64,000 nucleotides of DNA from Longimicrobiales bacterium (GTDB lineage Bacteria > Gemmatimonadota > Gemmatimonadetes > Longimicrobiales > Gaopeijiaceae): the NCBI GenBank assembly GCA_965249195.1, contig CBDFLM010000015.1, positions 476,644-540,643 of the forward strand, written 5' to 3'. Below, one piece after another: positions 4,133 to 23,394 of the stretch (positions are counted from its first letter, which is position 1; the number at the start of each line of letters is the position of its first letter). A program made the translations under genes and the position numbers. The notes below the pieces were generated by a model. That model worked only from the letters and a program-made list of their open reading frames with translations. It made no database searches and was not told where the DNA came from.

Positions 4133-4186
4133 CGCGGCCCGGCGGGGTTCGGGCCGTCCGCTCGGCGGTCCGCATCACCGGGTCAC

Positions 4187-5306: not shown

Positions 5307-5309
5307 AGA

Positions 5310-6089
5310 TCACCGACCGAGCCGGGCCGGGTCGAAATCACGTGCGGTGAGGCCGACACCCAAACGCAGATCGGTCCATTCCAAGGTGGTGCTTCCTCCG
5401 TCCCTGAGATCGACCATGGTCATCCGCCCCGCGCGCCAGAAGCCGCCGATCTCACGATAGTCCGCGATGTCGAGCGACCTGCGCCTGGCGCCGCCGCCGT
5501 CGAAGTACTCGACCCTGTGCAGCAGGTAGCGCTCCAGGTCGATCCACAGAAGCTGCCTCGGATAGCCGCCCGCTCCGCCCCGGCGGATCCGCTCGACCAG
5601 CACAGCATCGAGACCGGAGACGTCTTCATCCCTGATCCAGCGATACGAGAACCCCTCCATGCTCGGGGGACTCATGTCGTCGAACGTGAAGTGACTTCCC
5701 AGGAAGCTGTCGCTCGCCTGCGAGCCGCTAATCCGTCTCACCCGACGCGCGGTCGGAAGGTAGATCCACTGCGACCGGCTGCCGTCTGCGGCCAGAACGC
5801 TCAGGAACTCCGTCCTGGCGAGATCGGCGGGCCGCTCGAGCACGATCCGGGTCCGGTCCCCGTCCTGGGCCTCGAGGCCGCGCACGCGCATTTTTCGCAA
5901 TCGCTCCCGATCACCGTTCTCGACCCGCATCAGCAAGTCGGCCTCGAAGTCGCCGTATCCACGACTTCGTTGCTCCATCTCACGGACGATCGCATGCCCT
6001 CGCTCCCGGGCATCCTGCGCCGCGGCACCAGGTGCGGCGAGGGCAGCGACGGTCGCAAGCGCCAACAAGCCGGCCACTTTCGCGCTCAT
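5310..6089 (-). CDS. LolA-like outer-membrane lipoprotein-sorting / periplasmic lipid-carrier protein, partner of the MMPL exporter
   Basis: The true start is the internal Met of MSAKVAGLLALATVAALAAPGAAAQ (signal peptide). It overlaps the MMPL stop as ATGA. The MMPL + LolA-like pairing is known from aryl-polyene / flexirubin lipid-export modules. Confidence 0.6.
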   Translation of the reverse strand: MSAKVAGLLALATVAALAAPGAAAQDARERGHAIVREMEQRSRGYGDFEADLLMRVENGDRERLRKMRVRGLEAQDGDRTRIVLERPADLARTEFLSVLAADGSRSQWIYLPTARRVRRISGSQASDSFLGSHFTFDDMSPPSMEGFSYRWIRDEDVSGLDAVLVERIRRGGAGGYPRQLLWIDLERYLLHRVEYFDGGGARRRSLDIADYREIGGFWRAGRMTMVDLRDGGSTTLEWTDLRLGVGLTARDFDPARLGR

Positions 6090-8432
6090 CGAGGACTCCG
6101 CATGAGGAGGGACCGTATGGCGGGCCTTCGAGCGACGGCCCGCAGGAACGCAGGGAATCCGACCAGATCCGCGGCGAGGGCGAGGATGGCGGCGGAGCTG
6201 GTCAGGAGCCCGACCAGGAAGAGGACCTGGAAGCGCGACAACATGAGCACGCTGAAGCCGCACACGACGACCACTGTCACGACAACCAGCGCGGACCCGA
6301 CCTTTCGGAGCGTTTCAGCGAGTACGCGGTCCACTTCGGCAGACGAGCGCACGTTACGCACGAGGGCCCCGAGAAAGTGGATCGTGTCGTCGGCGACGAG
6401 GCCGAACGCGATCGCGAAGACGATCAAAGTGGTCGGCTTGAGATCGAACCCGCCCAAGCGCATGAGCCCGAGCAACATGACGAGCGGAAACAGGTTCGGG
6501 ACGACTGCGACCAGCCCGAGGCGGGCCGAACGGAACATCCACGACATGGCCATCCAGACGAGAACGATCGAGAACGCGACACCGGGCAGGAAGCGCGAGA
6601 CCATCTGGTCCCAGAGCACTTGAGACAGCTTCACTGTCCCGGTCAGCGTGGCGGACCCCCGCGGCGGCGGGAGGGTTGTGAGCTGATCCTCGAGGCCGAG
6701 CAGGAAGGGGGACAACGCGGAGGAGCCCGCGTCCCGCACGAAGAAGACCACCTGGCCGGCCCCCCCCTCACGGAGGTACACGTCCTCCAGAGCGTCGAGC
6801 TCCTGTAGCTCCGAGAGGAAGAGGAGCTCGGCGACCTCCTCCGTGCTGCGAACCGTCGCGGACGTCCGCTCCTCCCCCGACCCGGCAACACCGGCCTCCG
6901 GCACCGACCCGTACGCGGCGCCCAGCTCGTCTACGAACTGGGGCAAACCCACCGAGCCGAGAACGACCGGATCGGCCTCGCCAAATGCCTGGAGCTCCCG
7001 GATCCATCGGAGCATCTCGGCGGAGTGACCGGGACCATCCCCATTCGTCAGGAACACGTTGACCTGAAACACGCCGAATCCGGCATCCTCTATCCAGCGC
7101 AGCTCCTCGAGGATCGGATCCCCGTCCTTGAGGTCGTCGATGAGCAATGCGTGCACACGAAGCCCACCCCCGAGCGCGAGCCCGAGGCCGAGTAGGACGG
7201 CGAATACCCAGTTCGGCCAGCCCGGGTGGATTCTCAGGGTCGCCTCTATCCGGCTCACGACGGAGCGACCGAGTCGCTCGCCCAGCGGCTCGTCGGGACC
7301 GAGATCCGAGGCGAACGAGAGGAGCGCGGGCAACAGGGTCGACGTGACGCCGAAGGCCGCTATCACGGCCAGGCCGGTCACGATCCCGAACTCGTAGACC
7401 AGGGGATTCCGCGTGGCCACCAGCCCCACGAAGCCGAGCGCCGTCGTCAGCGAAGTGAAGAAGCAGGAGCGCGCCAGCGTGGCGAAGGTGGCCACGACGG
7501 CGTCGGGCACCGTACGCCCCCCCCTGCCATCGTTGCCGGGCTCCAATCACGAGGTGCGTCGCGTCGGAAAGGGCCACCACGAGGATGACGATCGGCACCG
7601 CGCTCGTGAGCACGGAAACCGCCCGGCCCACGTAGCCCATGACCCCGAGCGTCAGGAGGATTGCCGGGGCGACGGACGCGAAGCACAGGAGGGCGAGGGA
7701 GAGGCGTTGGAAGTACGCCCAGAGCAGGGAGAGCGAGATGAGGACGCCGAACCCCAACAGCTTCGTCATATCCGCTTCGAGCGCGAGCGGCACCGTCACG
7801 CGTAGGATCGGCAGGCCGTTCAGGATGATCCGGCCCGCTCCCGCGGCTATCTCCTCGATCTCGGCCTGGAGGAAGGCCGTGACCTCCCTGCGCCTTGCGT
7901 CGCTGTCGTCGGCCGGATCCAGATATCCGTGTACGGCGAAGACGGTCAGGTCGTCGTTCCACAGGGTGGCGGCGAAGAGCGGGTGATCCCGACGGGGTTC
8001 GAGCACTTCGTGCAGCCGCGCGTCCGACAGGCCCGTCTCGTCGCGGGGTCGCCGGAGCCGCACCGCCGGCTGACCGTCCTCGAACGTCTCCTCCACGAAT
8101 TCCGTGGATCCGATCCAGCGGACGGATTCCAGCCCGGCCTCGTCGAACGCTCGGGCGAGGCGCTCGAGGGTGCGGTACTCCTGGATACCGAAAGTGCCCG
8201 TGACCTCCAGGAATGCCGACACCTGGAGGTCCTCCTTCGGAAAGTGCCGTTTGAACGCGTCGTACGCCTCCCGATCTCCGCCCTCGAACGCGAAGAATTG
8301 CTGGGCCGAGTAGTCCACGCGGACGTCGCTGGCGCCGACGAGCGCTGCGACGAGCAGCGCCCCGTGGATGACGACCACACTCCCCCGTCGCTGGACCAGG
8401 AGTCGGAAGAACGCCTCGACGCGCGGGTTCAC
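6086..8432 (-). CDS. MMPL / RND-superfamily lipid exporter (HpnN-like), frameshifted at a G8 tract
   Basis: The N-terminal half is real in frame 6768..8432 up to ...ALSDATHLV. The C-terminal half is real in frame 6086..7546 (…TVPDAVVATFATLARSCFFTSLTTALGF…TLLPALL, then a second periplasmic domain plus TM bundle). The frames switch at the homopolymer 7517-7524. Confidence 0.75.
7517..7524. repeat. C8/G8 homopolymer at the MMPL frameshift junction
   Basis: cgtacg-CCCCCCCC-tgcc read directly. It encodes the RGG / QGG junction of the two MMPL frames. Confidence 0.9.
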
Positions 8433-8453
8433 GGTCGCCCCATCAAGGTCGGC

Positions 8454-9827
8454 TCACCCTCCGGCGAGGAACCGGAAGTGGATGGGGAGGACGAGTAAGG
8501 TCGCCGCTGCCGAGCAGGCGGTCTGCAGGCTCATGTTCCAGGGCGGCTCGGCGGGCCAACCAGGCAGTGTGCGAGCAGTCCAGTAGATAGCGGTCGCGGC
8601 GAGCGCGATCGCGGCGGCGGTGGCGACGGACGCCGCCGTCACGCCGCCGCCGAACCACAGGCCGGTGGGAACCACGAGCAGTACCGCCGCGACACCGACG
8701 GCCAAGGTGAAGGGGAGCGAGGTCGGCTCGCGATTGCCCGGCCCGAAAGGCCGAAACTGAGTGAGCGAGACGAGCGACAACTGGCCCGCGATCACGCCGA
8801 TGAAGGGCGCCCGGAACGCCTCGCCCCCGACGAGCCAGTCCGGACCGGCGAGGACACGAGCAGTGACGTCGTGCGTCGCCAGCAGCACGAGCGCGACGAG
8901 GACCGCGTAGATCGTAGCGAGCACCTGATAGTGCGCATCGGGCAGTGGCCCTCGATCTCGTCGGAAGTGTCTCAGGGCCGCGAGCGCGGCCAATGCGATC
9001 GTCGGGGCCACCAGCCAATCGCCACCACCGAACACGTACACGCCGTAGAAGAAGAGCGCCGCGGCCATGACGCCGCTGGTGCGCATGAGCTTGGACCTCA
9101 GGCACAGCAGGCCCAAAAGCAGGATCATCGCCACCAGCGCCGCGAGATGGCCCGCGACGAGGCCCGCCGGCTCCGGGACGAACCGTACGAGCATGTAATA
9201 CGTGGCCAGTGGGACGAGCAGATTGTCGCTACCACGCAGGCTCACTCCCTCGATAAGCGTAACGATCAAGGAGATGTGAATCCCGAGAAGCACACTCGCG
9301 TCGCGGCCGACCTCGGTCATCAGCAGAAGCGGAACGTGCACCACGAGGAACGTGGTCACGAAGAAGGACGCCGAGCCTTCCAGGGACCCACGGTCGCTCT
9401 CGACGGAATACGTGGTGCGGCCGTACGTGGAGCCGAGAAGTGCGGCTGCGGTGTCGGAAACGACGAGCGCCAGCGCCGCCACGAGGTAGAAGACGGGCTG
9501 CTCGTACGCCAGCGTGAAGAGCAGCACCACCGCGAGCGGATAAAACAAACCTCCCTCGGAGCGTCGCGAGATGCTGTGGACGCTCTGGAGCAGACCGAGC
9601 CTGCGCGTACCCCAGATCAGCAGCGCGAAGCAGGAGGCGAGCCATAGCACGGTCCAGCGGCTGGTGAAGATCCATGGGAACGCCAGGACCAGCAGCCCGC
9701 CGACGAAGTGTACGAACTTGCGACTCAGCTCCGGCGGTGGCTTGGCGAACCACCGCCATGCCTCGGCTGCCCCGAAAATAAGGAGGAAGCCCGCGCCGAC
9801 GGCCGCCGCCCGTGGCAGCTCAGCCAT
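8454..9827 (-). CDS. Integral membrane protein: N-terminal CdsA / CTP-transferase-superfamily-like domain (polyprenol / DAG kinase-like) plus about 300-aa multi-TM C-terminal extension
   Basis: Start taken at MAELPRAAAVGAGFLLIFG, an internal Met 8 nt into the upstream BtaA-like gene. N-terminal motif SRKFVHFVGGLLVLAFPW resembles CTP-dependent lipid kinases / cytidylyltransferases. The rest is mostly hydrophobic helices. The family assignment is tentative. Confidence 0.45.
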   Translation of the reverse strand: MAELPRAAAVGAGFLLIFGAAEAWRWFAKPPPELSRKFVHFVGGLLVLAFPWIFTSRWTVLWLASCFALLIWGTRRLGLLQSVHSISRRSEGGLFYPLAVVLLFTLAYEQPVFYLVAALALVVSDTAAALLGSTYGRTTYSVESDRGSLEGSASFFVTTFLVVHVPLLLMTEVGRDASVLLGIHISLIVTLIEGVSLRGSDNLLVPLATYYMLVRFVPEPAGLVAGHLAALVAMILLLGLLCLRSKLMRTSGVMAAALFFYGVYVFGGGDWLVAPTIALAALAALRHFRRDRGPLPDAHYQVLATIYAVLVALVLLATHDVTARVLAGPDWLVGGEAFRAPFIGVIAGQLSLVSLTQFRPFGPGNREPTSLPFTLAVGVAAVLLVVPTGLWFGGGVTAASVATAAAIALAATAIYWTARTLPGWPAEPPWNMSLQTACSAAATLLVLPIHFRFLAGG

Positions 9828-10938
9828 GGCCGAGCACCTCGTCGACGTGAAAGGACTGGTAGAACCACGCCAGGTCGCGCTCGTGGAGCCCGTGAGCGAC
9901 ATCGGAGCGCGGGCGCACGCGACCCGCGAGACCCGGTGGCATCGAGCGCGGCGTGAGCAGATTCCAGTACGCGAGTCGGGCACCCGGCCTGGAACGCTCC
10001 ACAAGCGCACGGTACACGCGCTCGTGCTCCGCCGTACTCATGTACTCGAAGATGTCCGACAGGTTGAATCCGTCGAAGCTCCCCGCCGCCTCCTCGACCG
10101 GGCCCCGGTGTATGCGGAGCCGACCGATCCGCTCTCGCACCAGGGGCCGGAACTCCGGGCGCAGGTACCGAGGCAGTGCCCCCGTCCGGTAGCTGCCGGT
10201 CATGATGCAGGTCAGGTAGGGGTTGGTGTCCGTTGGCAGCTCGATGAGGGCGTGGCGCGTGCGCGCGAGGATCCGACCGGCGACCGGACCGTTGACGTGC
10301 TCGAAGAACGCCGGATCCCTTCCGAGACGACCCATGACGGTCCGACTGAAGAACAACCGGAATAGGAGCCGCCACCTCCAGCTGTCCCAGGAACGACGGT
10401 AGAACGTCTCACGATCATCTCGAGATCGTGGCTGCAGCAGCGCCTCCACCGTTCCCGCCGAGTGGATCAGCGGGAGTACGCGGGCACGAAAGGTCCGGAA
10501 ATAGGCTTCGAACCTCCCCGCGCGTGCTGCACCGGCCTGTACGAGCTCCGGCCGGCCGTCCCAGAAGTCACGGGCGAAGCCCGGCAGGGCCGAACGGAGG
10601 CGCCTGTACGTCGCGACTCGGTCCGTAGAGGGGAACACACCGAGGAAGGGCAGCAGGTCGGCGTCGTCGAGCTCGGTGAACGCCGCAATGCGAATCGCCA
10701 CGCACGCGAGCTGTGCCGGGCTCAAGTCGACGGCGACGACCTCTCGCGGATCGAGGGTCAGAAGAGCCAGCGCGTTGTCTCCCGCCGAGGCGATGCTCAG
10801 GAGCCGGCCGTCCTGCGCGACGGGGGCGAGCGCATCGCACAGGACGTCCGCGTCCTCCCACACGCTGCCGTACCGGATCGCCTCGAAGCTGGCGCGTTGC
10901 TGAATGGGTCGGTCGTCCCGAGCTTCAGCCGCCGTCAT
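9820..10938 (-). CDS. DUF3419 / BtaA-like S-adenosylmethionine:diacylglycerol 3-amino-3-carboxypropyl transferase family protein
   Basis: IRYGSVWEDADVL...LSIASAGDNALALL...REVVAVDLSPAQLACVAIRIA matches the BtaA signature YAQCWEDP...ITSAG.NAL...AVDLNP.Q. Start chosen at MTAAEARDD, preceded by a GGAGG RBS and overlapping the HMGR stop by 14 nt. Upstream Mets at 10977 and 11019 are possible alternatives. Confidence 0.7.
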   Translation of the reverse strand: MTAAEARDDRPIQQRASFEAIRYGSVWEDADVLCDALAPVAQDGRLLSIASAGDNALALLTLDPREVVAVDLSPAQLACVAIRIAAFTELDDADLLPFLGVFPSTDRVATYRRLRSALPGFARDFWDGRPELVQAGAARAGRFEAYFRTFRARVLPLIHSAGTVEALLQPRSRDDRETFYRRSWDSWRWRLLFRLFFSRTVMGRLGRDPAFFEHVNGPVAGRILARTRHALIELPTDTNPYLTCIMTGSYRTGALPRYLRPEFRPLVRERIGRLRIHRGPVEEAAGSFDGFNLSDIFEYMSTAEHERVYRALVERSRPGARLAYWNLLTPRSMPPGLAGRVRPRSDVAHGLHERDLAWFYQSFHVDEVLGHG

Positions 10939-12255
10939 CTCCGCCTCCCCTCTCGGGGGTGATCCTCGCTCCGTCATTGCGAGGGCGACCCAACTGCGCG
11001 TGCGCCTGCGCGAACTCACCTGCGCAGATCGCGGCCGCGATCGAGATCTCTCCCGCGAGAGCCAGCGCTGCGGTGATCTCGGCGAGCTTCGCCGAGCCGC
11101 CGTCTCCGAGGCACCCCAGGATGCGCAGCGACTCGCTTGCGGTGGGAAGGCGCGTCCCGCCGCCGACGCTACCCACGATGAGGTTGGGCAGGGTCACGCA
11201 GCCGTACAGGTCACCGGCCTCGGTGACCTCCATCCGGCTGAGCGCGGTGCTCGCTTCACTGACGCAGGCCACGTCCTGTCCGCAGGCGAGGAAGACTGCG
11301 GTCACGGCGTTCGCAACATGGCCGCTCACACCGATGGACCCGGTCTGCACACCGCCGATCACGCTCATTCGCCAGTACTCGGCGATGCGGTCGGGGGTCG
11401 TTCGGAGGCGGCCCTCGACCAGTGTGCGAGGCAGCAGCACCTCAGCCGTCGCGTGACGGCCGCGGGTATCGAAGAAGCTGAGCGCCGTGCCCTTCTTGTC
11501 CCCCGACATGTTCGACTCGATGACCCAGTAGCGGGGGGTGACCGGCGTGCGCCGCATGACGTCTTCGCACACCGCGGCGGTCGCGAACGTCACCATGTTC
11601 TGGCCCGCGGCGTCGCCCGGATGGAAGTCCAGAATCAGGTAGATGAGGTTCGCCTGGTGCTGGACGCGCATGTTCACGAGCCGACCGTGCCGGGTTCGGC
11701 TCTCGGCGACCTCACGCACTCGATCGAACTCGCCCACGATCCAGGCGGCGAACCGGATCGCTTCGGCCATCGTGTCGAACGCGAAGCCCGGCGCTCTCTG
11801 GACCTGCTCCACCGTCGTCAGGCATGCGGCCCCCCCCCCGCGAGGGTGACGATGCGTGCCCCACGTGAGTAACTCGCGACCAACGCCCCTTCCGACGTGG
11901 CGAGCGGAACGTAGAAGTCTCCGTGGGCGTGCAGGCCGTTCACCCGCAGGGGCCCGACGATCCCGGTCGGGACGCTCGTCATGCCGATGAAGTTCTCGAT
12001 GTTTCCCTCGAGCCCCGCCGCTGTGGGCGGATCGCCCCGGCCACCCAAATGGGGCAGAGGTCCGGCCATCGCCTCGAGGAACCGCAGTCGTTCAGCCGTG
12101 GCCGCCTCGGTGGTGTCTCCGCGTCCGGGGACCGAGGCAGGGATCGGCCGCTCGTCCGCCGGTGTGGGAGCGAGTGTGTCCTGCAGCTTCGCGACGTCGT
12201 TGCCCTTGCTCAGGCGTCGGGCGATCTTGACTGCGCGCTGGTATGGAATGGGCAT
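10925..12255 (-). CDS. Hydroxymethylglutaryl-CoA reductase (NADPH), class I catalytic domain, frameshifted at a G10 tract
   Basis: N-terminal part in frame 11818..12459: start at [15 protein letters not shown], then [21 protein letters not shown]...[28 protein letters not shown]-terminal part in frame 10925..11812: [11 protein letters not shown]...[12 protein letters not shown]...[14 protein letters not shown]. The junction is the homopolymer 11830-11839. Confidence 0.8.
11830..11839. repeat. C10/G10 homopolymer at the HMGR frameshift
   Basis: gcggc-CCCCCCCCCC-gcgag. A run of 11 (or 8) would restore ...[17 protein letters not shown]. Confidence 0.9.
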
Positions 12256-12269
12256 GGGTCGGGGCCGGT

Positions 12270-13553
12270 TCAGGGAATGGGGCTGCGAGAGGGTGTCGCG
12301 ACGGGCCGCAGCCGGAGCGGCATACCGCCTCGGGGTCGTAGGGCGATTCGGGGCTCGAGCGCGGGGCGGAACCCGGGGGCGACCTCGAAACGGACCCGCT
12401 GGCAGAGCGTGGACAGGATCAGCTGCGCTTCGGCGAGGGCGAACGATCCTCCCGGGCACATGCGCTGCCCCGCGCCGAACGGCAGGTACACGCCCCTCGG
12501 CGGGGCGTCCGCGCGGTCGGCAGCGAACCGGGAGGGATCGAACACGTCCGGCTCAGGCCAGTGTCTCGCGTCGCGGTGGAGCAGGAACGGAGACACGGTC
12601 ACGACGGAGCCGGCCGGGACGTCGTAGCTGCCGATGCGATCGGGGCCGGTCGCCCACCGGCTGAACCGCCACACCGCGGGATAGAGCCGGAGCGCCTCCT
12701 TGAACACTTCGGCCGCCGTCGACAACCGAGGGAGGTCGTCGAAGTTCGGAGCGCGGTTGCCGCAGACACGCTCGGCCTCCTCCCGGATGCGATCGTGATG
12801 CTCCGGGTGGAGCGCGAGGAGGTAGAACGTCCACGCCAGTGTGGTCGCGACCGTCTCGTGTCCCGCGACGAACATGGTCATCACTTCGTCGCGGAGATCC
12901 TCGTCGGAAAGCGTCGGGCCGCCGCTTCCGCCGGACCTCGAAGCACGCAACAGAACACTCACGAGGTCGCGCGCGCCGTCCTCGCCCGCCCCCTCGCTCC
13001 GCCGACGGGCGACGACGTCGTAGATCACGTCGTTCAGTACCGTGATGGCGTCGTCGAACCGCTTGCGAGCCGGGGTCGGGAGCGAGGACGCGACGCGCAG
13101 GATCCAACGGAGGCGGTTTCCGCCCGGGAGCAGCTCCAGATACCGGAGCCGTGAAACGGAGAGTCGCTCCACGTGGTCGAAGACGACCTCGGCCGCTCCG
13201 TGGATGTCGCCCTCGCTGAGCTCGAGGTCCGAGCCGAGGACTGTCCGCGTGATGTTGCGGAGCGTGAGCTCGCTCATGCGTTGGTACATGTCCACCGTGC
13301 CGTTCTCGAGCGCGGCTCGAGCTAGCTCCTCGGCCTCGTCGGCCGCGGTCTCGGCCATGACCCGTGCGAACACCGCCAGGCGCTCCTTTCGCAGCACGGG
13401 TTGCACCAGCTTGCGGTGGGTCCGCCAGTGATCCCCCTCGCTCGTCACCAGTCCACGCCCGAGAAATCTCGAGAGCAGCTCGTATCCGGGCCCCTTCGTG
13501 TAGTTCGCCGCGTTCTCGACCAACACGTGCCAGACCGCGTCCGGATCGCTCAC
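12270..13553 (-). CDS. Cytochrome P450
   Basis: 427 aa. Heme-binding loop [20 protein letters not shown] (FxxGxRxCxG), I-helix AGHETVA and the ExxR motif. Confidence 0.85.
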
Positions 13554-13704
13554 CAGGAACTGGCTCAGCCCCCCATCTTCACGTGGACCACGTCCCCATA
13601 CGCATTCTGGAGCCGACGCTGCATGGCCGCCGGGTCCTGGCGCCTGCTCAGCACCGTGCGCACGAAGTCGGCGCCGCGGGGTCCGGGTGCTCGGGAGGAA
13701 CGGG

Positions 13705-14793
13705 TCACGGCGCGACGTCCCGACGCAGGAGCTCGTATCGGCGGACCCAGCGGTCGACCGAGGGCATCCTGTGGGGATCGAGAAGGAAGGCGCTCTTGTT
13801 TCCCACCCGCACGAGTGCCGAGACGAACCTGTGATACCCGTCGCCGATGGCCGCGCGGGCGACCGAGTGCAGCAACGCCGACGACACCCACCTGCCCCGG
13901 GCCGCGGCAGCGACCGCGATCGTCTTGACCACGACCCAACCCCGGTCGGGGAAGGCGAAGACGAAGCCAGTGAGGCGGCCCCGTTCGTCTCTGGCCAAGA
14001 AGGTCAGGTGGCCATCGGCCGCAGCGAGCACTTGGTGGTACAGCCGGTTGAAGAGGTCCTGCGGAAGCGGCTCGAAGAGCGGGTTCTCCCCGAACGCCTC
14101 CATACACATCGGATGGAGCTCCTGCAGCACGCCATCGAAGTCGGAGATGCCCCTGAGCCGCTCGAATCGGAACCCCGAATCCGAAGCGATCTCGAAGCCC
14201 CGACGGGTATGCTCGAAGAAATCTTGGACCGTGTATGCACCGGAACTCGGAAAGTCGAATCCGATCGTCTCGAACGTTTCCGCCGTCTCGAAGCCCAGTC
14301 CACGGAAGCGCTCCGGATACTCTTCCGGCTGGTCCGGCTCCCAGCCGAACGACCGAGGGGCGGAGGACGCGGCGCCGTCCGCGACGACGAAGCGGTAGGT
14401 GAACCAGGTGTTGACGTCGACCGGCGCATACAGCTCTTCCATGCCTTGCTCGGCTGCCCACCCCAGCACGGCTGCCACGATCTCCTCCGTCGCGGCGTCG
14501 CCCAGCGGGCCGCCCTCAGCCTCGTAGAGCCCGAGCATTCCCACGCGCTGGAGCCGCCCACCGCGAAAGGCGGCCGCACGCGCGACGTCGCCGTCCGGTC
14601 CCTCCACGACGAGGAGGAGGGCCGAAGACCGCAGGCCGACGCGGAGAACGGTCGCCAGATACGCGGAGGATTCCCGCCGGTCAGGGGCCCACGCCCGTCG
14701 TAGAGCGGCGCCGGTCCGCTCGAACCGGGCGAGGAAGTCGGTGGGTGGCACGATGCCGGGGGTCGAGGCCCAACGAGCGACGGTGAGGCTCAT
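13705..14793 (-). CDS. Tandem GNAT-fold acyltransferase-like protein (OlsB / MshD-like architecture)
   Basis: 362 aa. Two GNAT-like halves; the C-terminal half has the acyl-CoA motif VAAAARGRWVSSALL. Its start overlaps the upstream PEP-enzyme stop as ATGA. Confidence 0.4.
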   Translation of the reverse strand: MSLTVARWASTPGIVPPTDFLARFERTGAALRRAWAPDRRESSAYLATVLRVGLRSSALLLVVEGPDGDVARAAAFRGGRLQRVGMLGLYEAEGGPLGDAATEEIVAAVLGWAAEQGMEELYAPVDVNTWFTYRFVVADGAASSAPRSFGWEPDQPEEYPERFRGLGFETAETFETIGFDFPSSGAYTVQDFFEHTRRGFEIASDSGFRFERLRGISDFDGVLQELHPMCMEAFGENPLFEPLPQDLFNRLYHQVLAAADGHLTFLARDERGRLTGFVFAFPDRGWVVVKTIAVAAAARGRWVSSALLHSVARAAIGDGYHRFVSALVRVGNKSAFLLDPHRMPSVDRWVRRYELLRRDVAP

Positions 14794-17488
14794 AGGATCC
14801 TCACCTCGCCCTTGCCGGCGTCCATGCGCACACGCTGACCGTTCCGCAGGCGTTCGAGCGGCGAGCCGCCGACCCCGACGATCGTCGGGATACCGAGCTC
14901 CCGAGCGACGACGGCCGAGTGCGAGAGTACGCTGCCCCGCTCGATGATCAGACCGGAGCAGGCCGGGAAGGCGGGGACCCAGCCGGGATCGGTCCGTTCC
15001 GTCACCAGAATCTCACCGTCGAGGCCCTCGGTGTCTTCGAAGCCATGCGCGAGGCGCACCGGACCCTCGATCACGCCAGGGCAGCAGGAGGTGCCTCGCA
15101 GCACGTCGGGGTCCTCGTCGCCGAGTTCGGCCAGGAGGTCGAGGCTCCGCAGCAACGTGGGATGGCGCAGCGTGGCGCCGGCCGCCCCCCGAGTGACGAA
15201 CCGATCCGGAGGGGGGTCCGTGCTCCGGTACTCGTCGAACTCTCGCCGACGCACCTGTGCTAGACCGCCCAGATCGAGGGTGATCGGTCGCCCCTCGACG
15301 AAGGCCAGGATCTCCTCGACCGTCAGGTAGAACACGTCGTGCTCGTCGCTCAGCGCACCGAGCCGCTCCAGGTTTCGACCCACGCCTCGGAAGAGGCGCC
15401 TTACGACGCCAAACGTCCTCGTACGTTCGAATCGCAGCCGCTCCCGATCGCTTACCGCGCGGCGCGCCCAACGCAGGACCGCGAAGTAGATCGGGCGACG
15501 GAGCCCACCCAGGCGGGCACGCACCTGCTCCTCGGCGCCCTCACGAATCGCGGTCTTACGCGCGTTGATCTCCTCCGAAGACGGCACGCCGTTGCGCACG
15601 TACCCCTGCACGCTTGCGACGACCAAGTGCGGTCGATCGTGGAAGTCGAGGGTCTCCAGCTTGAGCTCGTCCACGCAGCGGCAGCCGTACTCCTCGATGT
15701 AGCGCGCCAGATGTGGCCTCAAGTCGGGAGCGAACCCTTCCTGCAGGGCCGCCCACAGGTCCACCGGGTCACCCGTGACGAAGCGCTCGCGAACGGACGG
15801 ATCGCCCTCGACGTGTCGCGCGATCTCGAGCAGAAGACGCATCGGCTCGGTGCTCTTCAGCTCGCCGTGCCCGCAGAGGAGGTCGTTTTGCAGCGACGCC
15901 GCGCCGTCGTCCGGTCCACGTCCCACCCAACTCTCGGTCAGGCTCGCGAGCATCCCGAACGCGATCATGCACCGGGTGTCGTTCACGATCGGAGCGGTCC
16001 AGTGGCGAAGGACCCGGTCCTCCAGGTGGTGGTACAGCGCGACCTGCTCGGTGAGGCTCAGCCTCCCGAGATCCTGCGTCTCGAGGGGACGGCACACGCG
16101 TTCCACCCGCTCCAGGAACCTTTCGTTGGCTCGTACGCCTCCGAACATGCGGGTGCCCAGCCGGAGCAGGAGCGCCATGCGACGCACGGCGCCGTGCCGG
16201 GGCGCCTCGGCGACCACGGAGTCGAAGAGCGGCTGCAGATCGCCCTCCAGCGACTGCTTCACGCCCATCATCGTTTCCATGAACGCGCCGCTCTTGCCGA
16301 CCAGTGGGAACAGCGCCAGCAGGCGATACCAGTTGAGCAGGTTGTAGTACACGCGTCCGCGGACGAGGCCGAGCATGTTGCGGAACATTCACTCGCGCTC
16401 GTGGACGAGGGCGTCGGGGACCCCCATGATCCTGCACGTCTGGAAGTAGACCTCCCGGTACGCCCTGCTCACGTGTGAGAACGTGAGGGGCGTTGTGACG
16501 CCCGCGTAGCTCTCGATGATGTTCGAGTTGTCCCAGATCACCGCGTTCCCGCCGGCGACGCGTTCGTCGAAGAGCGAGTCCGGAGGCAGCGTGGTAATGG
16601 GGCGGGTCTGAAGCGAATAGAGCCGTCCGCCCGAAAAAGCCCACTCGAAGTCCTGGGGCGACCCGAGCTCGCGCTCGAGCCTCAACGACATACGGGCGAC
16701 CTCCCGCACCTGGTCGTTCGTGAGCGAAGGCCGCCTCGAACGGTCGGCTTCGACGGGAACTAGGTGGGTCCCGCCGTTCGGGCCGCGCACGATGGCGCGC
16801 GACTTCTCGGCAATCGTCGTCACGAAATCCAAGGTGGTGCGGTCCACGACGAAGCGGTCGGACTCCAGCTCGCCTCCGACGATGCCTTCGCCCTGGCCCC
16901 ACACGCTTTCCACGACCAGCCCGTCTCGATCGCCCGGGTCGAGCGGGTTCCGCGAGAATGAGACCCCCGCCGAATCCGAATCGACCATACGCTGCACGAT
17001 CACGCCCATACGGGGCACCGTGTCCGCGGCGCCGATCGCGCGACGGTAGGCCACGTTCCGCTCGGAGAAGGCCGACGCCCAGCACCGTCCGATCGCGTCC
17101 AACACCGTGTCCGCGCCCCGCCGGTAGAGGTAGGTCTCGAACTGGCCGGCGAACGAGTGCTCCGTGCCGTCTTCATCCAGACCGCTGGAGCGCACCGCGA
17201 CGTACGCATCGTCGAGCTCGAGCCGGGAGAGCGCGCCACGGACCGCGCTCGCGACCTCCGAAGGCACCCGCAGCGTGAGGGTTCCCGCCGACTGGGCGTC
17301 GGCGGACGAGCCACCCGCGCGACGTACCGCTTCCGCGAGAGAGCGTCGAACGCTTCGACGGCGATGCAGAACCACGGGGGCACGGTGCATCCGATCTTTT
17401 CCAGGGCCGCGAGTCGAGCGGCCTTGCCCCCGGCTCTCACGGATAGGGTGTTGGCAGGCGAGTGCGGGCCGAGGGGCTCGATGCTCAT
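14790..17488 (-). CDS. PEP-utilizing enzyme (PpsA / rifampin-phosphotransferase-like: PPDK_N ATP-grasp plus C-terminal phosphohistidine swivel domain), disrupted by a frameshift near 17333-17344 and an in-frame TGA at 16389-16391
   Basis: True N-terminus MSIEPLGPHSPANTLSVRAGGKAARLAALEKIGCTVPPWFCIAVEAF sits in the 17000..18388 frame. The gene continues in frame 16389..17543 (...AVRSSGLDEDGTEHSFAGQFETY...GVIVQRMVDSDSAGVSFSRNPL...) and ends ...VHERE-TGA-ATG-FRNMLGLVRGRVYYNLLNWYRLL. It then runs to 14790, where the swivel domain GVIEGPVRLAHGFEDTEGLDGEILVTERTDPGWVPAFPACSGLIIERGSVLSHSAVVARELGIPTIVGV is found. The start overlaps the UbiA stop as ATGA. Confidence 0.7.
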
Positions 17489-18381
17489 GCTCCCACCCCC
17501 GTCCACTGCGCCAAGGTCGGAGCGAGGACCTGGGTGAACGCAAAGAGCGCGGCGAGCCCCTCGACCGTCTTGAAGCGCTCGGGGTGCCGCGCGACGTGGA
17601 CGATACCGCAGAGAAGCGCGGCGCCCGCAGGCCACACGAAGACGTGCACGCCGACCTGGAACGCGGAGACGGCAGCTAAAACGACGGCGAGGGTCACCGC
17701 GGTGAACGTCCACCCCGGACCCGACACCGTGAGGTACGTGCCGAGGGCGGGATGAGCGTCCGGGTCGAGCTTGCGGCACAACTCGAGGGCGAAGGCCGCC
17801 CCCAACCCCGTCAAAGCGAACCAGAGGACCGGCGCGGTGAAGGTCGAGGTCGGCACGGCGGCCGCGGTCGCGAACGCGTAGATCGGGACGATGATGACCT
17901 GGTGCGTGACGGCGTACAGGAACGGTCTGCCACCCAGGCAAGTCGGCGCGAAGAACTCGCGGTACATGAGTAGGGCGTAGAGCACGCACAGACCGAAGAG
18001 GGCGCCTGGCAGGACACCGACACCGATCGCGATCGCGGCGGCACCGAGCAGGAGCCCAGTCACGCAGAGCCACAGCCCGGTGCGCGCCCCTCGCTCGCTC
18101 AACAGGCCACGAGGGAGGGGACGCTCGGGGTGGGCTGCGCGATTCTTGTCGAGGTCCTTCAGCTCGTCCATCAGCCGCATCGCCGACAGCAGGCCGGCGA
18201 TCCCGAGGACCGCGATCACGAGGCCCCCCACGTCCAGGCGCGCCCTCACCACGTACTGGGCCGCCGCCTGCGCCGTACCGAACACGAGCAGCGCGGGGAG
18301 CTGGAACCGCTCCCGGACGAAAACGCTCCACGCAGCGAGGAGCGAGCCTGGCGCCCGAGCGGCATGGGACATCTCGCTCAT
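17485..18381 (-). CDS. UbiA-family aromatic / polyprenyl prenyltransferase (integral membrane)
   Basis: 298 aa from MSEMSHAARAPGS. Asp-rich motif LMDELKDLDKNRAAHPERPLPRGLLS (NDxxDxxxD, RPLPSG) plus 8-9 TM helices. The track ORF 17485..19563 upstream of this Met is Arg-rich junk. ATGA overlap with the AMP-ligase stop. Confidence 0.8.
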   Translation of the reverse strand: MSEMSHAARAPGSLLAAWSVFVRERFQLPALLVFGTAQAAAQYVVRARLDVGGLVIAVLGIAGLLSAMRLMDELKDLDKNRAAHPERPLPRGLLSERGARTGLWLCVTGLLLGAAAIAIGVGVLPGALFGLCVLYALLMYREFFAPTCLGGRPFLYAVTHQVIIVPIYAFATAAAVPTSTFTAPVLWFALTGLGAAFALELCRKLDPDAHPALGTYLTVSGPGWTFTAVTLAVVLAAVSAFQVGVHVFVWPAGAALLCGIVHVARHPERFKTVEGLAALFAFTQVLAPTLAQWTGVGA

Positions 18382-19818
18382 CGTCCAATACCTTCCTTGG
18401 ACAGCGTCGCGGAGCGGTCGATCCGGGCGCGGTGCCGCCGATCGCGCACGATCGAGACGTCCACGGCGCCCTCGATCTCCGGAAAGCGGCTCGAGAAGTG
18501 CCAGCCCGCTGCGGCGACGCGGCGCTGGACCGCCTCGCCGTAGAGGATCAGGCGACCGTCCTGACCGCGACGGACGAAGCACGCGCTCGTGCGGAGCTCG
18601 GAATAGAGCCGCTGCTCGAGGTCGAACTCGCCCGCGGCCTGTGACGCCCGACCGGCGTACCACCACCCTTCGTCGTCGGCGATGACACGATCCCCCATGC
18701 TGTGCCAGCGGCGGCCTTCGGTGTCGTAGCGGCTCCCCCCGTTCGCCTGGGCGGATCCTTCGTCCAGTCGGGTGGCGACGTTGTCTCCGCTGACCCAGAG
18801 TCCGTCCGGCTCGGGGCGTGCGGAGATCACGGGGACGGGCACACCGATGAAGAGCGCCTGGAACAGGTTGCGGGCCTGGCTGCGCTCGACGGCTTCGCGG
18901 GCGTCGACCTTCGCGACGGGCTCCGCCTCCGGCCCGCCGTAGACGTGTGTCCACCCGGCGTCTGGCCAGCGCCGGAAGCAGCGCTCGAGGATCCGGCAAT
19001 CGGTCTGTGCTCCTCCTACCACGACCGATCGCAGACCGCTCAGGTGCTCGCGCGTCTGGTCGAACCTCAGCAAACTCAGGAGGAACGCTGGACCCGTGGT
19101 GAGCGTGGCCACCCGGAGCCGCTCCGAGAGGGCCGCGATCCCGCGCAGCTCGGCGCGACCCCAGCGCTTGGGGACGAGCAAAGCGCCTCGGCCCGTGCCG
19201 AGGTGGAGGAGAGCGAGGTTGGGGAAGACGCAGAGGGCGGGCTCGTCGAACCGATCGAGCGGATCGCCAGCGGTGATCGCCTCGTGTAGGCTCCACATGC
19301 ACTTGTGGCTGCGGACGATGCCCTTGGGAGGGCCGGTGGTTCCAGAGGAGAACGTGATGGTGGCCGTGGCATCCGGATCCACCTCTTGGCAATCGAACGT
19401 CCGCGACCCAGCGAAGCGCACGGCGCGGCCGATGTGGATCCATCGCCGAATCCGCCGCGCGGCCGGGACCCGCGCCGCCCAGAGCTGCGCGAGGCGTGAG
19501 CCGATGAAGGCCCTGGGAGCCACCCGGTCGAGCACGTTCTGCACCTCGCGCAGCGGGAGCCACGGCTCCACGAAAACGATGATCACGCCGAGCCCGAGGA
19601 GGGCGAGGATGGTCGCGTAGAGGAGTGGGTCAGGAGGGGACAGCACCAATACCGTGTCGCCCGCCGACAGGCCTTCGCGCTTCGCGAGCGCTTGTGCCCC
19701 CCCCCCCGGCCAATCGGCCGATTTCGCCGAAGGACACCCGGCCGTCCTTGAGCGTCCAAAGCGCCGGGCGGTGCGGTCGTTCCCGCAGGTGCGGCAATAC
19801 CCGGGTCGCGCAGTTCAT
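18378..19818 (-). CDS. AMP-dependent synthetase / ligase (acyl-CoA synthetase / fatty-acyl-AMP ligase family), frameshifted at a G11 tract
   Basis: N-terminus MNCATRVLPHLRERPHRPALWTLKDGRVSFGEIGRLAGGGG in frame 19630..19818. It continues ...AQALAKREGLSAGDTVLVLSPPDPLLYATILALLGLG in frame 18378..19649, with AMP-binding motif TFSSGTTGPPKG. The junction is the homopolymer 19697-19707. Confidence 0.75.
19697..19707. repeat. C11/G11 homopolymer at the AMP-ligase frameshift
   Basis: ttgtg-CCCCCCCCCCC-ggcc read directly. Confidence 0.9.
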
Positions 19819-20396
19819 GGAGCCTCGTTCAGCCGCTTGATGTTGCCGATGTTGCGCCGAAAGATCCGCGCGATCTCGTAGGCAGAGAGGCGCATGAGGA
19901 CTTGGTCGGCCACGCCGGGGTCATCGCGGAAGAAGAGCGTGAAGCTCAGGCGGCAGGCGTCCTCACCCAGGGGTTCGTAGATCTGCTCGGTCACGAGCTC
20001 GCCCCTGGTGGTGGGTGCCCCCTGCACGTTGTAGATGCGGAGTCGACGCCGGAGCGGTCCCACGAGCTCGAAGTACTCGTCCCAGGTCATCCCACTTTCG
20101 TCCGCGTTCTTGAATGACCGTCGAATCGACCCCCGTGCGCCGTCCTTGGCCTCGTGCGGGTTCAAGGGGGTGATGTGATCGACGAAGACGGACCAGGCGC
20201 TCGCGTTCCTCGAGTCGGCGAGGTACGCGAACACGCTCCCGCAGGCGTCTGCGATGTCGACGCCTTCCTTGACGAGCCGGTGGGCGTATCCCGCGTGGTG
20301 CCGGTAGGGACTCCAAAGAAGCACGGCAGCGAACGCGGATAGCGGAAGCACGAGCACCACATACCTGATCTGCGGGCGTCTCACGATCGTCTTCAT
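19815..20396 (-). CDS. SRPBCC (START / Bet v1-like, polyketide-cyclase-type) lipid-binding domain protein with N-terminal membrane anchor; first gene of the operon
   Basis: 193 aa. N-terminal TM YVVLVLPLSAFAAVLLW, then about 150 aa with an alpha/beta pattern typical of Polyketide_cyc2 / SRPBCC. ATGA overlap with the next gene. About 1 kb of lower-GC non-coding DNA lies upstream. Confidence 0.5.
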   Translation of the reverse strand: MKTIVRRPQIRYVVLVLPLSAFAAVLLWSPYRHHAGYAHRLVKEGVDIADACGSVFAYLADSRNASAWSVFVDHITPLNPHEAKDGARGSIRRSFKNADESGMTWDEYFELVGPLRRRLRIYNVQGAPTTRGELVTEQIYEPLGEDACRLSFTLFFRDDPGVADQVLMRLSAYEIARIFRRNIGNIKRLNEAP

Positions 20397-20600: not shown

Positions 20601-21099
20601 GGGTCGATGGACCCGGCTGGGGAGCTCCCCGCTACTCGCTAGCTCCGGCCACTCCCGGTCCGCCGGCCCGGGAGCGGCTCCTGCGGCCTCGTAGACAAGG
20701 CCACACCGCGAGGTCCGGGGGCCGACGTCGTCGAGTCGGTGATCGAGTGCCGCCTCATCCTTCCGGGCATGCCTTACGGACCCAGGTGCGCTTTCCGCGC
20801 GGCCTCGCTCCTAGGATGTCGGTCCAGTCACAGACCCATCGGGCGATGGTGTCGTTCCTGATTGACATCTTGGGTGGAGCTTGAGGAGCCCCGAGGCTCA
20901 GAGCCGGGCTTCCGGCGACCTCTCCTCATCGTCCAGGCGGACGCATTCAATCGGAGTAGACTGCGGACCGTGATGTTCCTCGTCGGGCTGGACATCGTCG
21001 GTGACAAGCTGATCTGACTCTTCGGACCTCGAGGCTGGGAGCCGCTGTGCTATCGGGGTTACCAACCAGGTGTGCACGTTCTCTGTGCACGAAATGCAG

Positions 21100-21394
21100 C
21101 TAACATCATCTTCAGCCTCCCACCCGCTCCTTCAGCTCCTCGAAGAAGTTCTCGACCACGATGACCTCGGCCTCGGGACCGGCGGCCTCGGCATTTACCC
21201 TCGTAGGGGCGGACTGTCAGGAATCGCTGGTCGTCCGGCGCGATGGGATAGAAGTTGTCGGCCGCCCCAACGAAGTATTTCTCCCTCAATACCTCTTCCC
21301 GGTGTAGGCATCAACGATTGCGTAGAGAGGCGTGTTGGGATCGGCGCCGTAGTGGAAGTAAATGATATTCGTGTGCAGATCGAGCTGGATGCAT
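21100..21394 (-). pseudogene. Remnant of the C-terminus of a TolB-like / PD40 beta-propeller protein gene, truncated by the IS insertion
   Basis: Minus-strand fragments ...IIYFHYGADPNTPLYAIVDAYTGKRY*, ...KYFVGAADNFYPIAPDDQRFLTV... and the hallmark C-terminal ...VIVVENFFEELKERVGG* lie in different frames. The upstream part of the gene is missing beyond the IS. Confidence 0.4.
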
Positions 21395-21452
21395 TGAAGT
21401 GACCCCCGGAACCTGATCCAGTTATTGTGGGACTCCTTGAGCAGGAGGAGTC

Positions 21453-21719
21453 ATGCAAAAGAGGCGGTTTCGGGAAGAGCAAATCATCGGGATTCTGCAA
21501 GAAGTGGAAGCTGGAGCGACGATCCGTGAGATGTGTCGCAGGCACGGGATCGCGGAGACGACGTACTATCGGTGGCGCACGAAGTACGGTGGTATGGACG
21601 TGAACGAGGCGCGACGCCTCAAGCAGGTCGAGGAGGAGAACCGACGGCTGAAGCGGATCGTGGCCGACCAGGCCTTGAATCTTCAGATCCTGAAGGACTT
21701 GTTGGGAAACGGATCGTGA
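21453..21719 (+). CDS. IS3-family transposase OrfA (HTH)
   Basis: MQKRRFREEQIIGILQEVEAGATIREMCRRHGIAETTYYRWRTKYGGMDVNEARRLKQVEEENRRLKRIVADQALNLQILKDLL. Shows the IS3 / IS911 OrfA HTH plus leucine zipper. Confidence 0.85.
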   Translation: MQKRRFREEQIIGILQEVEAGATIREMCRRHGIAETTYYRWRTKYGGMDVNEARRLKQVEEENRRLKRIVADQALNLQILKDLLGNGS

Positions 21720-22579
21720 CGGCCCGGGAACGGCGCCAGGTCGTCGAGCAGGTGCAAGCCGTGCGAGAGGTTTCAGAACGCAGAGCGATCCGGTACACGG
21801 GTTTTCCACGCTCTACGATGCGATATCGCAGCACTCGCGATCCCCAGGAGCTTCTACGAGCTCGCATCGTAGAGTTGGCGCAGGAGCGGCCACGCTGGGG
21901 CTACCGGATGATCCACGTGATGCTTCGACGAGAAGGCCGGCTGGTGAACAGGAAACGAGTTCAACGACTCTACAGGGAGGAAGGGCTCGCGGTGCGTTCG
22001 AAGGGAAGGAAACGTAGGAGCCAGGCCCCTCGACCGATCCGAGAGGCGTTGAGCGGCCCGAACGAGCGGTGGAGCATGGACTTCGTCTCTGGCACGCTGA
22101 GCAACGGCCGCCAATTTCGGTGCCTGACGATCATGGACGAATTCAGTCGCGAGTGCCTGGCGATTCACATCGCGCATTCGATTCCGGCCGCCGGGGTCAT
22201 CGAGGTGATGGAGTGCCTCAAAGAGTCCAGAGGGTTGCCCGAAGTGATCATCACGGACAACGGCTCCGAGTTCCGCAGCCGTGCGTTCGATTCATGGGCC
22301 TACGCTCGAGGCGTGAAGCTCGATTTTATTCAACCGGGCAAGCCCGTCCAGAACGGCTTCATCGAGAGCTTCAACGGAACACTCCGGGGCGAGTGCTTGA
22401 ACCTGCACTGGTTCCTCTCGATCCACGACGCGAAACGTTCGATCGAGCAATGGAGAGCTGACTACAACGAAGTTCGTCCCCATAGCTCCTTGGGCTTTCT
22501 GACTCCCGAGGAGTTTATGGATATTCATTCACCGAGCGAAGAGAACCTCGCTCCCAAAAATATCTCGGAAGTCCCATGA
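21704..22579 (+). CDS. IS3-family transposase OrfB (DDE integrase core), expressed as an OrfAB fusion by -1 frameshift near TTGGGAAAC
   Basis: The -1 frame from about 21704 reads GKRIVTARERRQ...GYRMIHVMLRREG...WSMDFVS...ITDNGSEFRS...NGFIESFNGTLRGE...YNEVRPHSSLGFLTPEEF (rve domain). The track ORF start at 21533 is out-of-frame junk that overlaps orfA. Confidence 0.8.
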   Translation, partial: GKRIVTARERRQVVEQVQAVREVSERRAIRYTGFPRSTMRYRSTRDPQELLRARIVELAQERPRWGYRMIHVMLRREGRLVNRKRVQRLYREEGLAVRSKGRKRRSQAPRPIREALSGPNERWSMDFVSGTLSNGRQFRCLTIMDEFSRECLAIHIAHSIPAAGVIEVMECLKESRGLPEVIITDNGSEFRSRAFDSWAYARGVKLDFIQPGKPVQNGFIESFNGTLRGECLNLHWFLSIHDAKRSIEQWRADYNEVRPHSSLGFLTPEEFMDIHSPSEENLAPKNISEVP

Positions 22580-22608
22580 TTTTTGGATCAACTTCGGGGG
22601 TCACTTCA

Positions 22609-23178
22609 GCCGAGCTACCGGATTACCTGCACGGCCCGACGTTGTTCGCTTGGCTGACGGGCTGGAGGCGTGGCGAAGTGTTCGGTCTCACGTGGGCTCA
22701 AGTTGATTTCGACGCAGGCATCGTTCGCCTCGAACCCGGTACAACCAAGAACCTTCAGGGTCGCGAGTTCCCGTTCTGGGGTCTTCCCGAACTAGCTGCC
22801 TTGCTGGAAGCCCAGCGTGATCGGGCTAGGGAACTAGGCCGGAGGCGTGGCGAGTTCGTGACCCTTGTCTTCCATCGTGATGGAAAGCCCCTGGGCGACC
22901 ACCGCAAGGCTTGGGCACAAGCGTGCGAACGCGCCGGTCTGGCGGGGCTGCTATTCCACGACTCGCGACGCTCAGCCGTTCGCAATCTGGAGAGGGCAGG
23001 GGTGCCACGCTCGACCGCGATGCGCCTGACCGGCCACAAGACGGAAGCGGTCTACAGGCGCTACGCAATCGTGGATTCCGTGATGATCGAGGAGGGCGTC
23101 CAGAAGCTCGCGCGGCTGGTGGCGAACGGCGGCAAGGCTCGCACGGTATTACCCATGACGGTCGCGGCGCAGGGGTGA
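22609..23178 (+). pseudogene. Tyrosine recombinase / phage-integrase C-terminal catalytic-domain fragment; the N-terminal about 200 aa are missing at the IS boundary
   Basis: LTGWRRGEVFGLTWAQVDFDAGIVRLEPGTTKNLQGREFP...FHDSRRSAVRNLERAGVPRSTAMRLTGHKTEAVYRRYAIVD carries the R...HxxR...Y motifs. Homology starts immediately after IRR. The track ORF start at 22576 lies inside the IS. Confidence 0.7.
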
Positions 23179-23323: not shown

Positions 23324-23394
23324 TGCCCCCTGGTGTAAGGGCAGCACAAGGGTCTTTGGAACCCTTGGTCCAGGTTCGAATCCTGGGGGGGCAA
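23324..23394 (+). tRNA. tRNA-Gln (anticodon TTG)
   Basis: Hand-folded cloverleaf. Acceptor stem TGCCCCC / GGGGGCA (U1:A72). D-stem GTGT / GCAC with loop AAGGGCA. Anticodon stem AGGGT / ACCCT with loop CTTTGGA. T-arm CCAGG-TTCGAAT-CCTGG. No encoded CCA. It lies 146 bp downstream of the integrase fragment. Confidence 0.6.

Follow-up and report, generated by a model that had tools for sequence, protein, structure and literature searches.

The locus described here raises the question of why a gene for a large dikinase carries an in-frame TGA that is followed at once by an ATG in the same frame, and whether this marks a broken gene, a newly split enzyme, a codon that is read through or an error in the data. 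On the minus strand of the window (the whole stretch of 64,000 nucleotides that was analysed), the junction reads ...GTC CAC GAG CGC GAG TGA ATG TTC CGC AAC ATG CTC GGC..., so that the original prediction was correct both in the peptide quoted around the stop and in stating that TGA (16391..16389) and ATG (16388..16386) abut in one frame. The parts of the gene are listed below.

17343..17488, minus strand: codons 1-49 of the dikinase, with the start ATG at 17488..17486 (MSIEPLGPHSPANTLSVRAGGKAARLAALEKIGCTVPPWFCIAVEAFDA), placed by three-frame translation and by tblastn with the L087 ortholog
17342..17343, minus strand: window-specific loss of one nucleotide (TT to T), with a frameshift at codon 50 as the result, from a three-way alignment with L001 and L002
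16392..17342, minus strand: codons 50-366, with the remainder of the ATP-grasp domain (PPDK_N) plus ~65 residues at the start of the central domain, among them the WDNSNIIESYAGVTTPLTFSHVSRAYREVY motif
16389..17543, minus strand: ORF that ends at the TGA, from the ORF list
16389..16391, minus strand: in-frame TGA, codon 367, a nonsense codon; the same TGA is found in L001/L097, L002/L096 and L083
16388..16386, minus strand: ATG directly after the TGA, in the same frame
14790..16388, minus strand: 532-aa ORF that starts at the abutting ATG in the frame of the upstream ORF; these C-terminal 532 codons plus stop encode what is left of the RPH-type central domain (Rph_4th), as well as the swivel phosphohistidine domain (PEP-utilizers)

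As had been proposed, both halves belong to a single gene, whose protein has about 899 aa: when joined, their translations align gap-free at the stop with more than 100 full-length single-chain homologs and with 80 genomic loci, and for this reason the juxtaposition of the two ORFs is not a matter of chance. At either end the gene shares an ATGA with its neighbour, the start ATG with the stop of UbiA upstream, and the dikinase stop with the start of the GNAT gene. In Pfam searches, the piece with codons 50-366 matched PPDK_N on its own (E 4.9e-63) and the C-terminal piece matched PEP-utilizers (PF00391, E 4e-21), with a precomputed match of the C-half to Rph_4th (PF27448); the C-terminal piece is 99.6% identical to P0015 and equal to P0121. 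With the frame repaired, PPDK_N (PF01326) was found with E 4.9e-67 over profile positions 4-312 of 328, position 4 being reached only in the repaired frame, and PEP-utilizers (PF00391) with E 6e-21, and the swivel-His motif GSVLSHSAVVARELGIP aligned with GGLMTHGAVIAREYGLP of RPH-Lm. All three domains of an RPH-like dikinase (PPDK_N, RPH-type central and swivel-His) are present, and the single uninterrupted polypeptide of about 860-930 aa that marks such enzymes is broken here by the TGA at codon 367.

When the joined sequence was compared with 5.8 billion proteins, more than 4,700 relatives were returned, of which the best (P0001) is 72% identical; among the matches listed, the full-length ones are mostly single chains of 880-930 aa with PPDK_N, Rph_4th (PF27448) and PEP-utilizers, and most of the named matches are from Gemmatimonadota or Longimicrobiales MAGs. 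The host itself can be placed in the Longimicrobiales by an H+-pyrophosphatase in the window that is about 80% identical to proteins of that order. For the structural comparison, an AlphaFold model of P0001 (pLDDT 87, pTM 0.80) served as stand-in for the window protein, to which it is 72% identical; this model matched RPH (5hv1) over its full length (E 2e-42, TM 0.67-0.70), while HpeI (9goj) and the isolated ATP-binding domain of RPH (5hv6) cover only its first ~310-340 alignment columns. The domain matches together with the full-length fold match to 5hv1 identify the gene product as an RPH-like small-molecule dikinase and not a PEP synthase, and the PpsA / rifampin-phosphotransferase-like family assignment made earlier is borne out by the PPDK_N, PEP-utilizers and 5hv1 matches.

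As to where the protein is cut, the original prediction had put the stop inside the ATP-grasp domain, and this has to be corrected. The Pfam match to PPDK_N is over by about residue 301 and the stop is residue 367; in RPH-Lm, the ATP-grasp domain comprises residues 1-314 and the central domain residues 327-754 (PMC4844700), and RPH-Lm residue 314 aligns with about residue 300 of the window protein, in which the ATP-grasp domain ends at about residue 300-305. In the P0001 model, the break falls between two short helices (360-365 and 367-371), with a strand (317-321) and a helix (335-355) preceding it and a hairpin (374-384) coming after. Based on the end of PPDK_N, the domain limits of RPH-Lm and the secondary structure of the model, we place the break about 65 residues beyond the end of the ATP-grasp domain, within the first compact structural element of the central substrate-binding domain.

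The dikinase gene lies in an operon with the following extent.

6086..20396, minus strand: operon of a 193-aa ORF, AMP-binding ligase, UbiA prenyltransferase, dikinase, GNAT, P450, HMG-CoA reductase, DUF3419, a 457-aa ORF and MMPL, from gene calls and Pfam for L001/L002/L096/L097

The L087 proteins were placed on this operon by tblastn, and relatives L084-L088 have the same operon order with an intact dikinase of 896-899 aa; in relatives the operon consists of AMP-binding, UbiA, dikinase, GNAT, HMG-CoA reductase, DUF3419, a 458-aa protein and MMPL. Its core (AMP-binding, UbiA, dikinase and GNAT) is found in most of the 80 loci, across several phyla, and HMG-CoA reductase, DUF3419 and MMPL are optional after this core. 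Neighbouring genes of the operon are joined by 4-nt ATGA overlaps, which makes translational coupling normal there. Given the conserved operon with an AMP-ligase, a UbiA prenyltransferase and GNAT, the substrate of the dikinase is probably something other than rifampin; the literature searched on the operon yielded UBIAD1 papers without relation to it and no description of its function. Upstream of the operon lies a 150-bp inversion, for which an invertase switch was considered and rejected, there being no inverted repeats of useful length around it.

Relatives are informative about the stop position itself. All 190 that we examined (80 loci and 110 proteins) have a sense codon at the stop column: the 80 loci, all from species-representative genomes, span the region without a stop (80/80) and display 17 different residues at the column, with V or M at the next one, and the 110 full-length proteins have P, S, A, G, T, V, E or Y. 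In alignment A1, the column is W in P0001 and T, G, P, S, Y, D, L or A elsewhere, and the column after it is often Met. Since many homologs have Met at this next column, the ATG at 16388..16386 is an ancestral internal Met codon and not a new start. Aligning full-length homologs at the TGA, a check advised in the original prediction, gave a variable column with Trp in the closest relative (P0001, 72% identity), and on this ground the nonsense change from TGG to TGA that had been offered as an example is the most parsimonious origin of the stop. The other option offered, a natural split with re-initiation, did not survive: homologs encoded as two proteins with a split at this position were found at 0 of 80 loci and among 0 of 110 full-length proteins, and the candidate start is the ancestral Met codon. 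Most of the best 150 representatives of 50%-identity clusters are 800-950 aa long. A few relatives of 520-560 aa begin at conserved internal Mets (MGVP, MLGL) and were considered as natural splits near the break; they were rejected, as the one examined (P0253) is cut short by the end of its contig, with the DNA upstream of its start reading on without interruption. Genuine short forms do occur (P0288, P0341), beginning at the domain boundary just before the WDNSNI motif (about residue 310), in keeping with the two-component dikinases HpeHI, CreHI and PpsAB (PMC12167813); P0288 comes straight after a UbiA gene, and in L099 a form that lacks the ATP-grasp part follows UbiA.

The same junction was recovered from three further samples.

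L001/L097, sample ERZ25074040, contig of 43.7 kb: TGA-ATG junction present
L002/L096, sample ERZ28763718, contig of 1.47 Mb: TGA-ATG junction present
L083, sample ERZ25766727, contig of 17.7 kb: TGA-ATG junction present

The TGA is therefore common to four assemblies, each from its own sample (the window, ERZ25074040, ERZ28763718 and ERZ25766727), which differ by 0.2-0.4% in SNPs and represent at least three haplotypes: about 30 substitutions in 11.8 kb set the window apart from L001 and L002, only 1 substitution and 6 indels separate L001 from L002 in the 13.6 kb compared, and L083 is a third haplotype. Every sampled haplotype in which the site survives has the stop, and none of the relatives does. 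No intact allele of the gene above 72% identity was found among the 5.8 billion proteins. An exact-pattern scan of genome and metagenome contig collections for the sense-codon allele (GTCCACGAGCGCGAGNNNATGTTCCGCAACATGCTCGG) gave no match, and because the TGA allele was absent from that scan too, the scanned collections are without this species.

Besides the stop, the operon shows a further lesion on every haplotype, and as judged from these assemblies it appears to be undergoing loss or further damage in the population. The window copy has a frameshift at codon 50 that is missing from the original prediction: the window reads GACGC-T-CTCTC at a site where all five other assemblies have GACGC-TT-CTCTC, tblastn puts the first 49 aa of the L087 ortholog in frame -1 but aa 50-899 in frame -3, and homologs read FDASLAEAVRRAGG around the site, agreeing with the repaired frame (alignment A1). 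This deletion may be genuine, as a second lesion, or may stem from an indel error in the assembly, the latter being suggested by the poly-G tracts, of which the window has the longest at all three compared. Across assemblies these tracts measure 7-11 in the AMP-ligase gene, 7-10 in that for HMG-CoA reductase and 7-8 in that for MMPL, with the window at 11 vs. 7-10, 10 vs. 7-8 and 8 vs. 7 in the other assemblies; in the window the tracts lie at 19697-19707, 11830-11839 and 7517-7524. Four genes of the window's operon are frame-broken, and we have mostly dropped them as evidence of decay because three of the breaks are at these tracts of assembly-dependent length and look like homopolymer error.

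Lesions differ among the other haplotypes. L083 has an in-frame deletion of 660 bp that removes 220 aa of the central domain, and L001 and L002 carry A119, C120 and P271, residues unseen in 110 homologs; the window holds the family residue at these positions, as it does at all five N-half differences from L001/L002. In two more assemblies of the same species, L094 (ERZ25071132) and L095 (ERZ25068966), a large part of the operon is gone.

2681..16448, no strand: 13.77-kb stretch missing from L094 and L095; blastn joins 16449 to 2680

This deletion starts at about codon 348 of the dikinase and removes GNAT, P450, HMG-CoA reductase, DUF3419, the 457-aa gene and MMPL; L083, L094 and L095 are contigs labelled 2x, and the data for the secondary lesions in them are weak. 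The operon has 20 nonsynonymous and 7 synonymous SNPs vs. 9 and 10 in the adjacent housekeeping block, a contrast that is suggestive of relaxed selection but, with so few SNPs, not significant (Fisher p = 0.12; p = 0.22 for the dikinase alone). None of the 12 genes in the housekeeping block is broken, and their identity to another strain is 96.7-100%, with 11 of the 12 at 99% or above.

Several explanations can be set against these data. Were the TGA a sequencing or assembly artefact, the gene would be intact in the organism, and we regard this as the least probable reading of all: indel errors are clear in these assemblies, as evidenced by the varying poly-G lengths and by the excess of indels over substitutions between L001 and L002, but the comparison of these two also implies that substitution errors are rare, with only 1 such difference in 13.6 kb of the same haplotype. 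A substitution-type lesion outside homopolymers that recurs unchanged in four assemblies, each from a different sample and together covering at least three haplotype backgrounds, indicates that the stop is real and not a read error. Scarcely more probable is read-through or recoding of the UGA (suppression by a near-cognate tRNA-Trp, or insertion of selenocysteine), with some full-length enzyme being made. UGA is the leakiest stop codon in many bacteria, and the closest homolog has Trp (TGG) at the column; against this reading, TGA is the stop codon of 19 of the window's 26 high-GC3 ORFs, among them the dikinase C-half, a tRNA-Gln and no tRNA-Sec makes up the tRNA content of the window, Cys at the stop column was found in none of the 80 loci and 110 full-length proteins, and the SECIS search that the original prediction had asked for revealed no SECIS-like fold in the 91 nt from the stop, which fold no better than shuffled sequence (z = +0.63). 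Recoding thus seems unlikely, in agreement with what had been supposed, and the additional lesions argue against a maintained function.

A newly split but functional enzyme, in which termination at UGA and re-initiation at AUG would yield fragments of 366 and 532 aa that reassemble by complementation, is also improbable in our view, if somewhat less so than read-through. Several observations speak for it: the stop and start abut in one frame, which would permit termination-reinitiation as at the ATGA overlaps where coupled re-initiation is normal in this operon; two-component RPH homologs (HpeHI, CreHI and PpsAB) exist and are active (PMC12167813); the form after UbiA in L099 has no ATP-grasp domain; and the fragments, at about 40 and 59 kDa, resemble HpeI and HpeH in size. 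Natural splits, however, lie at the boundary of the ATP-grasp and central domains before WDNSNI, with the break here about 55-65 residues further in, where in the P0001 model it separates a strand and a helix from their hairpin. Moreover, no relative is split here, no Shine-Dalgarno-like motif has evolved before the ATG at 16388..16386 (GAG only), the haplotypes carry extra damage in the form of a frameshift, the 660-bp deletion, radical substitutions and the 13.8-kb deletion, and the window frameshift would halt ribosomes about 600 nt upstream of the junction, with loss of coupling. A gene fission in progress, with UGA-AUG supporting termination-reinitiation and the two fragments still forming a working dikinase, is given a slim chance, a little below that of the split enzyme as such; if true, it would mean that a break within the central domain can be tolerated by an enzyme of the RPH type, and would suggest a route from fused ancestors to two-component dikinases such as HpeHI and PpsAB.

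Our preferred reading, which we hold to be likely, is that of a recently inactivated nonsense pseudogene of a single-chain, ~899-aa RPH-like dikinase, located in a dispensable operon that the species, an uncultured member of the Longimicrobiales, is losing. A reproducible in-frame stop stands in an otherwise conserved ORF for which an intact allele was not found in the searches above. We postulate that one substitution turned codon 367, a variable position of surface type, into TGA, that the resulting stop cuts the protein in the first element of the central domain so that no full-length enzyme would be made, and that the fragments are unlikely to be active. Weighing against a pseudogene is the fact that, apart from the stop, both ORFs are open and well conserved in three of the four TGA-bearing assemblies; on account of this we take the mutation to be recent, and loss of function is something that we infer.

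In practical terms, both ORFs should be annotated as one disrupted gene (pseudogene) and not as 'PEP synthase' plus 'PEP-utilizing enzyme', and no functional copy of the operon should be ascribed to the MAG. Beyond annotation the finding matters little, although one species in which an operon occurs in at least four versions, each damaged in a different way, makes a small, clean case of ongoing gene loss, in an operon (AMP-ligase, UbiA, RPH-like dikinase, GNAT) that is widespread across phyla.

Among known systems, RPH-Lm (PDB 5HV1, 5FBS) shares with the window dikinase the ATP-grasp (PPDK_N) domain, the large helical central substrate-binding domain and the C-terminal swivel-His domain, with sequence matches at both ends, including the region of the catalytic His, and the full-length fold match. 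The two differ in that identity is about 24%, the first ~250 residues of the central domain cannot be aligned by sequence, and the window gene resides in a conserved AMP-ligase/UbiA/GNAT operon and is interrupted by a TGA. PpsA and PPDK likewise have ATP-grasp and swivel-His domains, but the substrate-binding domain of the window dikinase is RPH-type rather than PEP/pyruvate-binding, and PPDK fold matches cover only ~20-25% of the P0001 model; the 'PpsA' label is therefore an annotation habit and not a functional assignment. HpeHI, CreHI and PpsAB (phenylphosphate synthase) are members of the same superfamily, HpeI (9goj) matching the first ~340 model columns, and have the ATP-grasp part and the substrate-binding-plus-swivel part on separate polypeptides of about 40 and 70 kDa (PMC12167813). 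Their division is conserved and falls at the domain boundary, whereas that of the window gene lies about 65 residues into the central domain, is not conserved among orthologs but unique to one species, comes without a ribosome-binding site of its own and is accompanied by further lesions.

The dikinase, an RPH-like small-molecule dikinase gene of about 899 codons that is cut by an in-frame TGA at codon 367, lies in an operon (window 6086..20396, minus strand) whose core order, AMP-binding ligase, UbiA prenyltransferase, RPH-like dikinase and GNAT, is shared with loci of our comparison set (L003-L088). This operon is kept across Gemmatimonadota, Bdellovibrionota/Oligoflexia, Planctomycetota, Acidobacteriota and others, with UbiA as a neighbour in 57 of the 80 loci examined, the AMP-ligase in 54 and GNAT in 50 (both of 80), and with HMG-CoA reductase (HMGR), DUF3419, a 458-aa protein and MMPL as optional additions. 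A P450 gene (window 12270..13553) is an insertion into the operon, present in this species only among the loci compared. We found no description of the operon's function in the literature.

The features considered here are as follows.

Features in the window and related assemblies
17342..17343, minus strand: 1-nt deletion (T) at codon 50 of the dikinase, by comparison with five other assemblies
L099 784..2562 (farmland-soil contig): 592-aa family member without the ATP-grasp domain
2681..16448: 13.77-kb deletion seen in L094 and L095
~15606..16265 (L083 4944..4946): 660-bp in-frame deletion in the dikinase C-half, junction of METMMG and YVRNG
11830..11839: poly-G tract in the HMGR gene
19697..19707: poly-G tract in the AMP-binding ligase gene
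7517..7524: poly-G tract in the MMPL gene
20621..20772: inverted segment, ~150 bp, directly upstream of the operon's first gene
20800..22609 and 23324..23394: IS3-type transposase genes (HTH_Tnp_1 + rve), on the tRNA-Gln side of the operon

The 592-aa protein begins just ahead of the WDNSNI motif, at the boundary of the ATP-grasp and central domains, and its gene start overlaps the UbiA gene stop (GTGA), showing where natural domain-boundary splits are located in this operon family.

Because one T, present in the five other assemblies, is missing from the window at codon 50, the first 49 dikinase codons are in a different frame, a frameshift that the original prediction had not picked up; the missing base is a second lesion in the gene or else an indel introduced during assembly. 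The HMGR, AMP-ligase and MMPL reading frames are likewise broken in the window, at intragenic poly-G tracts whose lengths vary from assembly to assembly (HMGR 7, 8 or 10; AMP-ligase 7-11; MMPL 7 or 8). In-frame HMGR requires G8 and is out of frame with G10 (window) and G7 (L001/L002), yet in L083, where the tract is G8, the gene call is in two pieces. These length differences are due either to homopolymer errors of long-read sequencing or to hypervariability of the tracts. Very long homopolymers, G15 (42474..42488) and C10 (41377..41386), also occur outside the operon.

Other haplotypes carry larger losses. The 13.77-kb deletion removes the operon's distal two thirds. Its breakpoints are the same in L094 and L095, each assembled from a different additional sample (ERZ25071132 and ERZ25068966), and both contigs hold ~320 bp of additional sequence at about window 20812. 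The 660-bp deletion belongs to a third haplotype (L083), on a contig labelled 2x.

IS3-type transposase genes lie between the operon and the tRNA-Gln + prs-L25-pth housekeeping block. In other strains, the match to the window begins at 22609, with an integrase-bearing island upstream instead, and ERZ28763718 has the operon on one Mb-size contig and the housekeeping block on another; the junction results from an IS-mediated rearrangement or else is chimeric.

The ~150-bp segment is oriented in L001 and L002 opposite to the window and L083, and short palindromes (GGCATGCC, GGGGAGCTCCCC) form its junctions in the window. Since no long inverted repeats flank the segment, the inversion does not resemble a classical invertase switch.
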